From positions 1 to 25,982 of the forward strand of contig CAXHJY010000748.1 in the NCBI GenBank assembly GCA_964016885.1: a DNA stretch of 25,982 nt. The letters run 5' to 3'. The notes below the pieces were generated by a model. That model ran no database searches. It was not told the DNA's origin and saw only the letters and a list, made by a program, of their open reading frames with translations. The first letter of the stretch is position 1. Each line of letters begins with the position of its first letter. This document shows, in pieces, positions 6,138 to 24,806 of this stretch. Both the position numbers and the translations under genes were made by a program. This DNA is from Eledone cirrhosa. Its lineage: Eukaryota.

Positions 6138-6481
6138 CAGTGGTTGCCAACCTTTCAAACTTCAAATTATTATTTGAAATGCTGCAGACCACTAATATGA
6201 ATTTTTTTTTTTAAAAGATAAATACATTTGTAAAATAATGATCAGAGAACCTCCATTCTATTAAACAATACTGAAACGTTTGTGTGCCCTATTATTGATA
6301 GATGATACAATATGTATAAAATTCTTTCATGGATGTTAGTTTTTTACTGAGGAGAAACATTTTTTAGGGGTGTTATAACATATATTTTAACCGAATATTA
6401 TTTTTGTTTTATTATTAATAAAACATAAAAATTGCAAATAATGTCAGAATTTTTCAGTAGACCACCAGCTGGCAACTGCTG
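6138..6481. mobile_element. hAT-superfamily non-autonomous element (MITE, 344 bp)
   Basis: Imperfect TIRs CAGTGGTTGCCAACC / AGCTGGCAACTGCTG, with an 8-bp target duplication TTATAAAG (6130-6137) / TTGTAAAG (6482-6489). Confidence 0.8.
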
Positions 6482-7059: not shown

Positions 7060-7850
7060 CTCTTTACTTGACCGTACCAGTACAATAATCTGTCTCTTGC
7101 ATGCTACATTTAATTCCTCTTATACTCTCAGTTCACTTGTGTTCTCTTGTTCATATATACTAACATTACATATCCAGTGAAGCATGCATGCTTCATTTCT
7201 TTTTAGCTGCTGTAGATCTTCTACAATCAAAACCAATATCTTGCCTCCATACAGTAGAGCAGTTTCAACAAACATCTCTTCATTCTGAAAGCGAAGCCTT
7301 TTGTTGCCAGCAAAGATAACAGCTCCATGAACTTCTTCCACCTTATCATCACTCTGGCTACAATACTTTCACCATATCCACCTCCACTGTTAATAAGGTC
7401 TTCAAGATATTAAAAGCTCTCTACTACTTCTAGTGAGCCTTCTCAATATTTAAGAGTTTATTTCCTGAGTACTCATACTGTTGAAAACTACTGTGCCTCT
7501 CACATATGAAGTCTACTTTCTCTGCCAGCCTAGCTGTAATCCCACTACATCTCTTGTGTAACCACTGTTCACACTGGGTACATGGCATAGTTTCTACCTA
7601 CTCCTTTTCTGTATATTGAGCAAGACCATTTCCCTGATGGTTGCAGAATCCTATCCTAATAAAGACCTTAGCCTTCGCTAAGTTTACTTTGAGTCTCTTT
7701 GATTCCAGATTTTGTTTGTATGTCTGGGGCTTCTTCTTAGCTCTTCTACAGTTTCAGCTGTGAGGGATCGATCATTGGCATGTAGGAGTTCCCATAGACA
7801 TCCAGTCTTAAATTTCTCTGTTTTGACTTATTTGGCTATAATGAACAGGC
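7060..7850 (-). mobile_element. Decayed RTE-clade LINE fragment (end of RT to C-terminal region)
   Basis: Minus-strand motifs WELLHAND (decayed YADD), KWSCSIYRKGVGRN..CTQCEQWLHKRCSG and EDLQQLKRNEACMLHWICNV. Homologous to 16553-17510 and 18080-18690. Confidence 0.85.
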
Positions 7851-8296: not shown

Positions 8297-13270
<4,974 letters not shown>

Positions 13271-13297
13271 TGTATGATTATATTTTATTTGTTGCAG

Positions 13298-13417
13298 GAG
13301 GTAAATGTGCTTGCACTACATCCTGTAAAACTGGTAAATGTGACAATTCAGGATGTAAATGTGGTGCTAATTGTAAATGTAAGGACTGTAAAGGAGAGAA
13401 GTGCAAATGTGCTGAGG
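13298..13417 (+). CDS. Metallothionein-like protein, internal coding exon (120 nt, phase 1-1): [x]GKCACTTSCKTGKCDNSGCKCGANCKCKDCKGEKCKCAE[G]
   Basis: Acceptor ttttatttgttgcAG ends at 13297 and donor G|GTAAGT starts at 13418. The open frame has 11 Cys, including four CxC motifs, is Lys/Gly-rich and has no aromatic residues. Confidence 0.93.
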
Positions 13418-14185
13418 GTAAGTGACACCATAGTACTATTTTATCATATCACTGTGGGTTCCGTTACATTGGTCAGACATCAGCCACTGACCAGCACACC
13501 CAGTCCCCCCCTACCCAAACCATTGATCCTCTCAAACTCTCACCCTGCTCATGTCTTTCCAAAAGGAATAGACTTGCATCAGGTTAAGCAGAACATTGAT
13601 GGCATTGTTCTCTTCAGTCATGGGTGGTTTAAGACTGTCAACATCACCTTTTCATCTAGGGGTGGGGGAACATTTTTAATTTGAAGAGCCATCTTTAGCT
13701 ATAAAATAATAATTGATTCTGATTTAGACACAAGGCCAACAATTTTGGGGTGAGAGGAAAGTCAATTAAATCGAGCGCATTACTAGTACGCTGTTTTATC
13801 TACCACGTAATGATGAAAAACAAAGTTAATCTTGGCAGAAATAATAACAATAATTAAGACTACTGGAGCCACATAATTTATCAACAAAATAACAAGGAAA
13901 CATGAACTGAACCAAGTTTTCCTTATCTGAAACTGCTTCAATGTCTGAGTCATATGTTATGGCTTTTATTTGAATACAAGATTTAGAGCACCCAAGTGTC
14001 ACTTGAGATAGAGTAAAATCTCACAAGTGGCACTAACCCTATAAGTTCCCATCCTCTGCTCTAGATGAACATCTGGTTCTTTCCCTGTTGGTTTCCATCC
14101 ACTGCTCCAGATGTACATAAAAAAAAATAACTTCTACAAAGGAAATGTAATAAATTTAGTAATGTCCCCATTTTGTCTTTTTCAG
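13418..14185 (+). other. GT-AG intron (768 nt) of the metallothionein-like gene
   Basis: GTAAGT donor and ttttgtctttttcAG acceptor; phases match (G+GT = Gly). Contains a decayed minus-strand SINE at ~13725-13840. Confidence 0.9.
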
Positions 14186-14247
14186 GTGATTGTAAATGTG
14201 ACTCTAGTTGTTGTAAGCATGGCTCAGAGAAGAGTTGCTGCAAGTAG
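14186..14247 (+). CDS. Metallothionein-like protein, terminal coding exon: [G]DCKCDSSCCKHGSEKSCCK*
   Basis: In frame with the previous exon; 6 Cys (one CxC, two CC); TAG at 14245-14247. Confidence 0.93.
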
Positions 14248-14343: not shown

Positions 14344-14410
14344 AATAAAATGGATTAAAAATCAATGTCTTGTTTAACTCTTTCTTCACCTTCACTATAT
14401 TTCTAATAAA
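14344..14410 (+). terminator. Polyadenylation signals of the metallothionein-like gene
   Basis: AATAAA at 14344-14349, ~100 nt after the stop and followed by a T/GT-rich stretch; second AATAAA at 14405-14410. Confidence 0.65.
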
Positions 14411-18992: not shown

Positions 18993-21530
18993 TTTCTTTA
19001 TTTGCCACAAGGGCGCACAAGAAAAGGGGACAATACAAAGACACATGCCAGGGATTTTACATACAGTTGTGTAAAAAAAATATAAAACAAACAAACAATT
19101 ATAACAATCGAAATCCCCAATAGGGGGCAGACGCCACAAATGGGTTGTTTAATACTCCGTTCAACTTCAGGAGTGTGTTGTGCAAGTGCTCCCTTCTTCC
19201 TTTAGCTCTCTTCTTTAACCTACAGGCTTATAAACAGAAGGCCCAATCACTCAGGCCATTTTCGCTTTATTCACCCACCTTTCAGTAAATTTACTGGGGT
19301 GCAGTGTTCTCTCTCCACTCTGATTCTCCTTCTAAAGTGATACTTAAAGAAGGGAATTAATTGTTGTCCGGAGAGAAAAACAGCTGTCCTCCTCAGTCCT
19401 CTCAATCTCATCCACCATATAACCTCTTTCACCATAGCCACTGTCTATAGGTCCCGGGCAGAAAGTCCTACCGAACAGACTGGTGAGTTCGTCGTCTTCC
19501 ACGCCTAGAGTTTCCCCGAGCCCGTCGTCGCACTTGTAAAGTACTAACCCTCTATAGAATGCCTGTGGTCGGTGAGGAATACCTGAAGATGCCGTAGCCT
19601 CAGCGCATCATTAGCCACGGCATGCCCAGCCCTCCGTTGGAAGGGTGTTGACAGCAGACGGATCTCCTCACCAGTGCAGCCTGCTTCTTCCACAGGAACT
19701 GGAAGAGCATGCGTTCCATCTTGGTGAGGTATTCACGAGGACAAGGCATGACAGTCAAGCAGTAGTAGATGACGGACGCTATGAAAGTGTTCGCCACCTC
19801 CTCGACCTTTCAAAGGCAGTTTGCACTCTGCCCACTTCTGGGTGAGCACAAATACCTTGGCCATGACCTCGCTCCAGTTTTTCTCCACCTGGAGGTTTAG
19901 GCCGAACCTGACCCCGAGCAATTTTACCGGTCCTTCCGTCCAGCATCCGACGACGCTGCCGGATGGCATTGGTTTGCCTCTCCACGTTCCGAGTTGCAAA
20001 CCGACAGACTTGTTCGGGTTCAGTTTTGCTCCTGTGAACCTTTCGTATTCCTGAAGTAGGTTGCCGATTACCTCGATTTCCGAGATTTTTGACACCATTA
20101 CCGTTACGTCGTCAGCATAAGCCGACGCCGCTTTTCGCATTCCCGGTTCTAAAGGGATGCCCTGCAAAAGCTCCAACTTCCGCAGTAGCGGCTCTAGAAT
20201 CAATAAGTACAGAATGGAGAAGAGAGGGCATCCCTGTTGAATGGAACGCGTGATTGCGAACGGCTTCGATAGGTAGCCGTTCACCTTGATCTTCGAGCAA
20301 ATGTTGGTGTACATCGCCTTGATCCAGCCTCTGAAAACGGGACCGAAACTGGCCGCCTTGAGAACCGCTTCCAAGTATCGATGGGCAACCCTATCGAATG
20401 CCTTAGACTGATCTAAATTGATCAGAGCCCCACCTTACCCTCTCTATGATGTATCGCATGAGGTGGAGGTTGTCATGTATGGATCTATTCGGGATTGCAC
20501 ACGTTTGCGCTTTCTCTACCAGCCTCGTTGCTAGCACCTTGGCCAAAATCTTTAACTCTGTGTTGTGGGCCTGAAATTGTTTTTTTTTCATCCTTCTTGT
20601 TCTCGTCTTTCCTGATCAGCGTTACTACGCCCTTGCCTGCAGAACTGGGAATTGTCCCGTTCTGCTGCCAATTGCAGTAGACGGCTTCGAGAACACCCAT
20701 GCCTATGTAAAACTCATAGGGTAGACCATCTAGACCGGGTGATTTGCGTTTCCGGCAGCGGCCCAGAGCGTCCCGTATCTCAGCGGCTGTGATCGGTCTT
20801 TCGCAGAACTCGGCGTCCATACTCAAGAGACGTGGCAGGCCGTGGAGGTATGAACCAAAGTCCATTGCCCCGTTCGGTGCACCGTCGTTCTGCTCAAAAA
20901 GTCGAGCAAAGTGCCACTGAAAGGCCGCACACATCTGCCTGGGGTCAAGTAGCATGCGTCCGTTTTGGTCTTTCAAAGACCGAATCGCGGACTTGTTGCT
21001 ACTTTTCGCTTCCTCCACTCGGGCCCAGCTAACAGCTTTTGCTCCCTCGTTTCTTAGAGCACGTGTTTTACTTCTGACCACGCAGCCTTCGTGTTTCGCG
21101 TCGAAGAACTGGTCTAGTGCCGTTCTCGATGCTAGCACTCTAGCTGTGTTGCCACTCCTAAGCGCCTCTTCTACTTTGGCTACTAGTTCTGTTTCTGATT
21201 TGTTTTTCTCTAAAGCTAATTCTCTGTTAAATCCTATTGATTCTACTCTAATTGCTCTCTTGAGAGAGTACCACTATCTATTGTTGACGATGGCTCCCAT
21301 CAACTCTTGCTTAACTAGTCTACTTATCCGTTCACTGTAGGCTTTTCGTGCCGGTAACGTCACGTTCAGCTTCCAGTATCCGGGTCCTTGTCTATGTATT
21401 CTTTCATGGTTGACTATGCAGACGACTAGTTTGTGATCTGAATAGGCAACCATGTGCATTTGTGGACAGCTTAACATCTTCTTGTCCTTTTCTCTAATGA
21501 AAAACCTATCTAGATACGATCTAGATGTCC
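18993..21530 (-). mobile_element. Tx1/L1-clade non-LTR retrotransposon, decayed (end of APE endonuclease + RT + C-terminus + 3' UTR)
   Basis: SYLDRFF/SDHKLV/GYWKLN (endonuclease end), KSPGLDGLPYEFY, KILAKVLATRL, QGCPLFS, AYADDVTV, GGLGMP and KEVIWWMR. Minus-strand AATAAA at 18997-19002, then (TA)n. Multiple frameshifts and internal deletions. Confidence 0.92.
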
Positions 21531-21539
21531 ATGCATATA

Positions 21540-22229
21540 CGAGGTGTGTCAGGACTGATGTCACAAAAGATTTATTTCAAACCCAAACTTCACACCAAGC
21601 GTTTTCTCCTTCAAAGTAATCCTCCTGGAGTCTAATGCACTTTTCCATCCTTTTCTGCCACGCTTGCATGCACTCCTGGAAGGATTCTTCCGGGATCCTC
21701 CACAGTTCCTTCGTCACGGCCTTTTTGATGTCGTCCACGTCTTCAAAACGGGTCCCCTTGATGATTCCCTTGAGCTGGGGGAATAGGAAAAAAATCACAC
21801 GGAGCCAGGTCGGGGGAGTAGGGAGGTTGCTCCAGCACAGCGATGTTCTTCTCGGCCAGGTACTGTCAGAGGCTCAGGGCATTGTGAGCAGGAACGTTGT
21901 CATGGTGAAGCATCCACGAGTTGTCCTGCCTCAACCTCACCTTTCCTCACGCACTGAACGAAGCAAACGCTGCAGTATCTCTTTGTAGACATGTTGGTTG
22001 ATTGTATGGCCCTGTGGCAAGAACTCGCAGTGGACGATCCCCCTCACATCGAAGAATGTGATCAACATGACCTTGACTTTGGACTTCGACTGTCATGTTT
22101 TCTTCGGCCTTGGCGACGACGGACTCTTCCTCTGAAGGCTCTGGCATTTGGTTACCGGGTCGTACTCGAAGATCCATGACTCATCAGCGGTGATGACTGT
22201 CCCTAACAAGTCTGGTTCGATTTCAAGAC
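21540..22229 (-). mobile_element. Truncated mariner copy (3' half of transposase plus one TIR with an 11-bp deletion)
   Basis: Collinear with 23495-24194. TA precedes cgaggtgtgtc; agaaaagttcc is missing from the TIR. Motifs ITADESW and FFLFPQLK...QEDYFEG. Confidence 0.93.
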
Positions 22230-23494: not shown

Positions 23495-24806
23495 CGAGGT
23501 GTGTCAGAAAAGTTCCAGGACTGATGTCACAAAAGATTTATTTCAAACCCAAACTTCACACTTAGAGTTTTCGCCTTCAAAGTAATCCCCCTGGAGTCTA
23601 ATGCACTTTTCCATCCTTTTCTGCCACGCTTGCATGCACTCCTGGAAGGATTCTTCCGGGATCCTCCGCAGTTCCGTCGTCACGGCCTTTTTGATGTCAT
23701 CCACGTCTTCAAAACGGGTCCCCTTGATGACCCCCTTGAGCTTGGGGAATAGGAAAAAATCACACGGAGCCAGGTCGGGGGAGTAGGGAGGTTGCTCCAG
23801 CACGGCAATGTTCTTCTCGGCCAAGAACTGTCAGAGGCTCAGGGCATTGTGAGCAGGCGTGTTGTCATGGTGAAGCATCCACGAGTTGTCCTGCCTCAAC
23901 CTCACCTTTTCTGACGCACTGAACGAAGCAAACGCTGCAGTTTCTCTTTGTAGACATGTTGGTTGATTGTATGGCCCTGTGGCAAGAACTTGCAGTGGAC
24001 GATCCCCCTCACATCGAAGAATGTGATCAACATGACCTTGACTTTGGACTTCAACTGTCATGCTTTCTTCGGCCTTGGCGACGATGGACTCTTCCACTGA
24101 AGGCTCTGGCGTTTGGCTACCGGGTCGTACTCGAAGATCCATGACTCATCACCGGTGATGACTGTCCCTAGCAAGTCTGGTTTGGTTTCAAGACACTCGA
24201 GGATGTCCTGGCACACTTGCATGCGTCGACCCTTCTGGTCATCGTTCAGCAGTTTTGGCACCATCTTCGCGCAGACTTTCCGCATATCCAAATTTTCAAT
24301 GAGAATCTTCCAGACGCTGTCCCGATTCATGCCCAGGTCATTTGCCATCAGTCGAACAGTCAGAAGACGATCGTTATGCACTATCTGCCTGACGCTCTCA
24401 ACGTTGACCTCAGTCCTGGTTGTTGAGGGCCTTCCGCTCCTGGGGTCATCTTCCACATCCTTGCGTCCTTCTTTAAATCTCTTGCACCACTCAAAAACAC
24501 GTGAGCATGACATCGTCTCATCTCCATACACTTGCTGCAGCAATCCCAGTGCTTCTGACGGAGTTTTCCCCAACCGTACCAGAAACTTCAAGTTTGTTCG
24601 TTGCTCTGTGCTCATTGCTTAACGACCTGAAACAGAGGACATGAATATAAAATTATGAAGAAAAATGTTTGATCGCTGCAGAGAGTTAAAATTACAGTTA
24701 CATACTCCAGGGCGAATACTTTGAAGGAGAAAACTCTTAGTGTGAAGATTGGATTTGAAATGAATCTTTTGTGACTTCAGTACTGGAACTTTTCTGACAC
24801 ACCTCG
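23495..24806 (-). mobile_element. Full-length (1312 bp) mariner DNA transposon with ~103-bp imperfect TIRs
   Basis: TIRs at 23495-23597 and 24704-24806 (9 mismatches by my alignment). TA on the left, AA on the right; lies in TA-rich repeats. Confidence 0.96.
23543..24615 (-). pseudogene. Mariner (DD34D-type) transposase pseudogene
   Basis: MSTEQRTNLKFLVRLGKT..., DDPRSGRP, CAKMVPKLL, ITGDESW, HHDNTPAH and YSPDLAPCDFFLFPKLK. TGA stops at 24058-60 and 23831-33, with a further stop/frameshift near 23900. Confidence 0.95.

Follow-up and report, generated by a model that had tools for sequence, protein, structure and literature searches.

A probable Octopus MT1 orthologue with one extra cysteine in a genomic contig of Eledone cirrhosa

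Two exons in a stretch of 25,982 nucleotides from Eledone cirrhosa (contig CAXHJY010000748.1, analysed at its full length and called the window here) very probably encode, judging from sequence, the C-terminal 60 residues of an Octopus MT1 orthologue with a full length of about 70. The protein would be a metallothionein (MT) likely to wrap Cd/Zn in two thiolate clusters. The initial annotation had proposed a spliced cephalopod metallothionein at this place and had considered it potentially new. The first proposal has been borne out, as the orthologues are named Metallothionein and all 16 of their Cys in the aligned span are matched. The second has not. The gene holds up as real, yet OvuMT1 and ObiMT1, the equivalent proteins of two Octopus species, were already in UniRef and in the literature (PMC7826182), with the same layout, the same His and the same C-terminal KHGSEKSCCK. 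Annotated orthologues whose Cys spacing is the same except for one residue have therefore been found, which the annotation had named as the result that would remove the novelty, and the only new feature of the layout is one extra Cys.

Exon 2 occupies positions 13298-13417 of the forward strand (120 nt), with an acceptor AG ending at 13297 and the donor GTAAGT directly after 13417. It has split codons at both ends, corresponds to orthologue residues 11-51 and carries nine of the 12 Cys expected in the alpha domain, the linker and the CxC that opens the C-domain. Intron 2 (13418-14185, 768 nt) is a GT..AG intron of phase 1 and holds a piece of a high-copy repeat near 13717-13781, where read depth exceeds 1e5 in two runs. 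Exon 3 starts at 14186, preceded by the acceptor TTTCAG ending at 14185, and its coding part (14186-14247, forward strand) holds the remainder of the modified beta1 domain up to the stop codon at 14245-14247. Both introns flanking exon 2 are of phase 1, and the Cys-rich product arises in only one of the three frames, so that the two phase-compatible exons with canonical AG/GT sites stand as first described. The AATAAA reported after the gene lies at 14344-14349 (forward strand), 97 nt past the stop, and is likely to be the poly(A) signal; further candidates are ATTAAA at 14354 and a second AATAAA at 14405. The acceptor of exon 2 is in tandem (CAG GAG, 13295-13300). Use of its second AG would remove one Gly, and the Octopus proteins, which have GG at this site, correspond to the first.

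The spliced product comprises 59 complete codons, or 60 when the split codon at its start is counted. A recount over these codons returned the composition given earlier, with 17 Cys, 13 Lys, one His and no Phe, Trp or Tyr. Members of the metallothionein superfamily have fewer than 100 residues, about 15-30% Cys in CxC, CC or CCC motifs and few or no aromatic residues (PMC7826182). The product has 17 Cys in 59 codons (29%) and no aromatic residues, and its Octopus orthologues have 69 residues. Its Cys are laid out as CxC-x3-C-x4-C-x4-CxC-x3-CxC-x2-C-x4-CxC-x4-CxC-x3-CC-x7-CC. The C-terminal spacing first given, CxC-x4-CxC-x3-CC, is retained in this layout, while its final gap is x7 and not x6. 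In a six-frame scan of the window, Cys/Lys-rich stretches were seen at exons 2 and 3 only. As originally noted, none of the 77 open reading frames of at least 80 aa in the window shows the product, which is absent from single-frame reading frames.

Orthology to the Octopus proteins was shown in several ways. A phmmer search with exon 2 against 1.84 billion representatives gave a sole match, P0002 (E 1.9e-08, 73% identity), whose cluster comprises one O. vulgaris and one O. bimaculoides protein, both entered in UniRef as Metallothionein. P0002 is OvuMT1 of O. vulgaris (CAI9736660.1, A0AA36BLK1), labelled "hypothetical predicted protein" at NCBI, and P0003 is ObiMT1 of Octopus bimaculoides (KOF91040, UniRef100_A0A0L8HQM4). 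The spliced product is identical to the O. bimaculoides protein at 47 of 59 positions and to that of O. vulgaris at 45 of 59, both proteins being 69 aa long. All 16 Cys of the orthologues in the aligned span are matched, and the His is conserved too. Against the O. vulgaris protein, 30 of 41 positions are identical over residues 11-51 (exon 2) and 17 of 20, with one gap, over residues 51-69 (exon 3). Each intron interrupts the gene at a point that corresponds to a Gly codon in the orthologues (residue 11 for one, residue 51 for the other). The alignment scores to the two proteins were 286 and 303, whereas 1000 shuffles for each, with composition preserved, reached at most 138 and 128, and tblastn recovered the two exons at E 2e-28 and 4e-12, with the next match in the window at E 0.84. 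These margins show that the Octopus match is not due to chance. Relative to ObiMT1 and OvuMT1, the Eledone copy shares the Cys spacing, the His and the last 10 residues. It differs by 11 and 13 substitutions, none of them at a Cys, and by one inserted residue that gives CC for C, so that its C-domain has 8 Cys where theirs have 7. Since the two Octopus proteins are identical to each other at 65 of 69 positions, the present copy is likely to come from a more distant octopod.

No Pfam family was matched by either exon, nor by the two published Octopus MTs (P0002 and P0003). The library thus lacks coverage of the octopod MT lineage, which also explains the "hypothetical protein" labels of the Octopus proteins. 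Atlas matches to MT clusters reached 0.75-0.85 and serve as leads only, so that the assignment to the family depends on the orthologues, which owe their name to their Cys pattern. Word-based homologue searches returned nothing with exon 2 and, with P0002, only P0002 itself; the best MT match in a PDB search was 1qjl (E 2). ObiMT1 and OvuMT1 have been published as alpha plus beta1 proteins (PMC7826182, Calatayud et al., Table S2). Cephalopod MTs as a group are described as alpha/beta1 proteins of 69-73 aa with 19-21 Cys, whose beta1 domain is "somewhat modified in Octopus" (PMC7826182). The present gene is a third octopod MT sequence, comes with its arrangement of exons and makes plain that octopod MTs escape Pfam.

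The N-terminal part had been read at first as a 9-Cys beta-type domain. The alignment begins at orthologue residue 11, and the first 10 orthologue residues carry a CCC motif; this part is therefore probably a 12-Cys alpha domain without its first exon. The two-domain plan with a 12-Cys alpha-type N-domain, as predicted for the octopod MT here, is also that of NpoMT1 of Nautilus pompilius and SesMT1 of Sepia esculenta. The C-domains of NpoMT1 and SesMT1 also start with CxC-x4-CxC-x3-C, as in the octopod form (PMC7826182, PMC9781358). They keep the full 9-Cys beta1 ending CxC-x3-CxC, whereas the octopod form ends in C(C)-x7-CC. Accordingly, the canonical mollusc beta1 pattern (CxC-x4-CxC-x3-C-x5-CxC-x3-CxC, 9 Cys) is not matched by the CxC-x4-CxC-x3-CC-x7-CC found here, nor by the Octopus MTs. 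The first five beta1 Cys are kept, a later CxC is lost and a CC stands at the end. The initially noted departure of the C-domain from canonical mollusc beta1 is thus upheld, and a "modified beta1" is what PMC7826182 describes. The C-domain would have been shortened by loss of a CxC motif relative to beta1 of Nautilus and Sepia.

The extra Cys lies in a Cys-Cys pair (TGT TGT, 14209-14214, forward strand) where both Octopus proteins have one Cys, and its codon likely came from slippage of a TGT. The pair is present without gaps in contigs of two sequencing runs, X1 (contig on 13744-14548, with no other letters) and X2, which may be the assembly's own sample. The His codon (14218-14220, forward strand) is common to both Octopus proteins and is a candidate ligand. 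The C-domain thus offers 8 Cys and a His here, compared with 7 Cys and a His in the Octopus proteins. It has to be asked whether this is a distinct octopod C-domain, in which His replaces a lost Cys and the extra Cys restores a nine-ligand cluster for three metal ions, a refinement of what the initial annotation had proposed. Such a reading is rather unlikely. In its favor, 8 Cys and one His make nine donors, and all three octopod sequences agree at the His and over the final 10 residues, with differences at 11-13 positions elsewhere; so small a set, at 76-94% identity, is however a weak guide to constraint. His ligands are known in other MTs, such as C. elegans MTL-1 (PMC11134313), but the His is present in Octopus proteins with only 7 Cys and hence predates the count of nine donors. 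The C-domain also aligns to beta1 over CxC-x4-CxC-x3-C and has been published as a modified beta1 (PMC7826182), and the Atlas model of P0002 has a pLDDT of 0.48.

What this modified domain binds may be approached through its relatives. Members of the metallothionein superfamily bind d10 metals in thiolate clusters, and of the two cephalopod MTs compared here, NpoMT1 and SesMT1, only NpoMT1 has measured binding (Cd7). NpoMT1 is regarded as a Cd-thionein: the whole protein forms Cd7 as its sole species, and the isolated alpha domain forms Cd4 (PMC9781358). By analogy with NpoMT1, the alpha domain of the octopod protein would bind four Cd2+ with a preference for Cd. Its C-domain has close to an even chance of holding three ions through 8 Cys and a ninth donor, for which the His is the obvious candidate, giving seven ions in total. 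That it holds two ions on Cys alone, for a total of six, is only slightly less probable. MTs that use His, among them C. elegans MTL-1 and MTs of bacteria and plants (PMC11134313), set a precedent for a ligand His, though one that has no sequence link to the octopod MT. In C. elegans itself, some His do not bind, namely one in MTL-1 and the terminal one in MTL-2 (PMC11134313). The word "histidine" is absent from the main text of two papers on mollusc MTs (PMC7826182, PMC9781358), and no binding study of any Octopus MT was found in the literature covered, which largely left out subscription journals. The likely role would be cytosolic sequestration of Cd and buffering of Zn and Cu, for example in the digestive gland. 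The role of cephalopod MTs has been called controversial and their induction by Cd inconsistent (reviews PMC4101491, PMC5397501). The metal content of the C-domain bears on this dispute over MT in octopus Cd storage, and the two forms, 7 Cys plus His and 8 Cys plus His, are a natural pair for asking how a shortened octopod C-domain binds metal.

Three sequencing runs of one study, X1, X2 and X3, cover parts of the gene. None of them is on record as RNA, and X1 and X2 come from one sample. Depth in X1 and X2 is flat at 2-3 across intron and exons, as expected of DNA, with exon 2 uncovered in X1. X3 was taken as transcriptome-like from its size and coverage alone. Its contig 17, 120 nt long and at depth 435, agrees with the window at all 86 positions of 13334-13419; after 13419 come four letters that are the next four of exon 3, and the contig is then joined back to 13334. 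It thus reads from exon 2 into 17 letters of exon 3 and into exon 2 again, in a cycle of 90 nt. This contig supports the use of the 13417/14186 junction and fits a spliced transcript. The proposed junction is accordingly crossed, but the X3 contig was not seen to go on into the rest of exon 3 as a normal transcript would. X3 has zero depth over most of intron 2, over positions 13298-13333, and over the body of exon 3 and the 3' UTR, although uncovered parts prove nothing on their own in this run. The ends of the looped contig fall on an 11-nt direct repeat, with copies at 13334-13344 and 14192-14202 (both forward strand) that lie 90 nt apart in the spliced mRNA. Two simpler accounts of the loop were set aside: the tail is unlikely to be plain exon 3, since it is placed at 13334 with four letters between, and a back-spliced circular RNA was rejected because no AG precedes any position to which the junction can slide. 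Two accounts remain for the loop: a chimera produced by template switching and left over when tips were clipped, or the transcript of a tandem-repeat MT.

The latter account holds that the 90-nt unit (13334-13417 plus 14186-14191) exists as tandem copies in an allele or paralogue, which would place extra 30-aa modules of 9 Cys between the alpha and C-domains. It is improbable, though several observations agree with it. At 90 plus 30 nt, the contig is built like the circular contigs of Logan, whose ends repeat a 30-mer (bioRxiv 10.1101/2024.07.30.605881), and the flanks at zero depth (13298-13333, exon 3 and the UTR) look as if clipped as tips. The 90-nt unit is open, and its 9 Cys (CxC-x4-CxC-x4-CxC-x3-CxC-x2-C) come near the beta2 pattern (PMC7826182, Table 1). 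Multimodular MTs are known in bivalves and gastropods (PMC7826182), and forms such as the oyster alpha/beta1/beta1 and the gastropod beta3n/beta1 are the model for this reading of the loop; they are reported for Bivalvia and Gastropoda only, and the support in the present case is one ambiguous contig. In a first toy assembly, a loop-only graph was obtained in 49 of 60 repeat cases compared with 2 of 40 rare-loop cases, and in 3 of 20 cases for a 50:50 mix. This contrast between a rare loop and a real repeat disappeared in a wider run with more error levels and three assumed clipping rules, which are not Logan's settings. Under the first rule, rare loops (1% and 5%) gave 7/24 and 6/24 and two and three copies 7/24 and 12/24; under the second, rare loops gave 11 and 11 of 24 and two and three copies none; under the third, every mix gave 24/24. 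A junction on an 11-nt direct repeat without splice signals is the signature of template switching by reverse transcriptase (PMC3591102). All four microhomologies of at least 9 nt between exons 2 and 3 are in frame, so that the frame of the loop is no sign of selection. Furthermore, the window holds one unit only, and the DNA-like contigs of X1 and X2 pass both copies of the repeat unbranched at flat depth 2-3 (a low depth, from one sample). That no longer homologue scored weighs weakly on the same side. There is accordingly a small chance that this would be the first repeat-expanded cephalopod MT, at least as an allele, in which recombination at the 11-nt repeat produced beta2-like modules (about three ions each) and the three-metal site of the C-domain was rebuilt from 8 Cys and His. 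If the loop is real, it would mean that multimodular MT evolution is under way in cephalopods; no repeat-expanded cephalopod MT is reported in the literature found, from a search with subscription journals largely outside its scope.

For the two-domain MT with a single unit of each domain, the first exon would be expected upstream of the window. Such an exon 1 would measure about 31 nt (about 10 codons), carry the CCC motif and complete the 12-Cys alpha domain, and the full protein would then have 70 aa and 20 Cys. Exon 1 was not found in the window by a donor scan, a motif scan or scoring against residues 1-10 of P0002, the best 10-codon score in the 13.3 kb upstream being 24/63. A candidate with ATG at 6441, CCC at 6477 and a weak phase-1 donor after 6501 is very likely a chance occurrence and was rejected, as it lacks the N-terminus common to Octopus and Sepia and has x8 instead of x6. 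Other CCC runs (5131, 5188) are TGT microsatellites and not exon 1. A 5-kb (TA)n array (8298-13268) lies directly upstream of the exon-2 acceptor, probably within intron 1, and with only 6 C in 4971 bases it can hide no coding island. If exon 1 sits upstream of the window, intron 1 would be longer than 13 kb. The absence of exon 1 from the 13.3 kb upstream is also what a silent duplicate or pseudogene without exon 1 would show. This is very improbable, as frame and splice sites are intact, none of the 16 shared Cys is lost, the poly(A) signal is in place, the X3 contig crosses the junction with no other letters over 86 positions, and a missing exon 1 can be explained by the window edge or by an assembly problem in TA arrays. 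A long secreted disulfide-bonded protein with these exons as its tail, raised earlier as a possible refutation and favored by the missing start only, can be practically dismissed, since the orthologues are complete at 69 aa and the match begins at their residue 11.

The window as a whole is rich in A and T and contains long TA arrays as well as the remains of transposons. The array ending about 30 nt before the exon-2 acceptor (8298-13268) is the second, another being found at 1-1339. A metal-inducible MT gene would show induction by metal and a cluster of metal response elements (MREs) at its promoter, which here presumably lies outside the window; the MRE core is TGCRCNC. It occurs 13 times in the window compared with 5.9 expected, a count reached in none of 100 shuffles. 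The cores are scattered: one lies in intron 2 (13773-13779, reverse strand), and 10 of the 13 are downstream of the gene, many of them in transposon remnants or CA-rich repeats. The excess was set aside because the cores are mostly downstream and in repeats. Among the remnants, short LINE-like pieces are present near 7120, 16691 and 18198 (Pfam blank in both of the two tested). A broken non-LTR retrotransposon spans 19733-21576 on the reverse strand (Pfam RVT_1, E 2e-17), and a broken mariner/Mos1-type transposase spans 23543-24618 on the same strand, with a second piece near 21577-22190 (Pfam HTH_48, E 2e-07).
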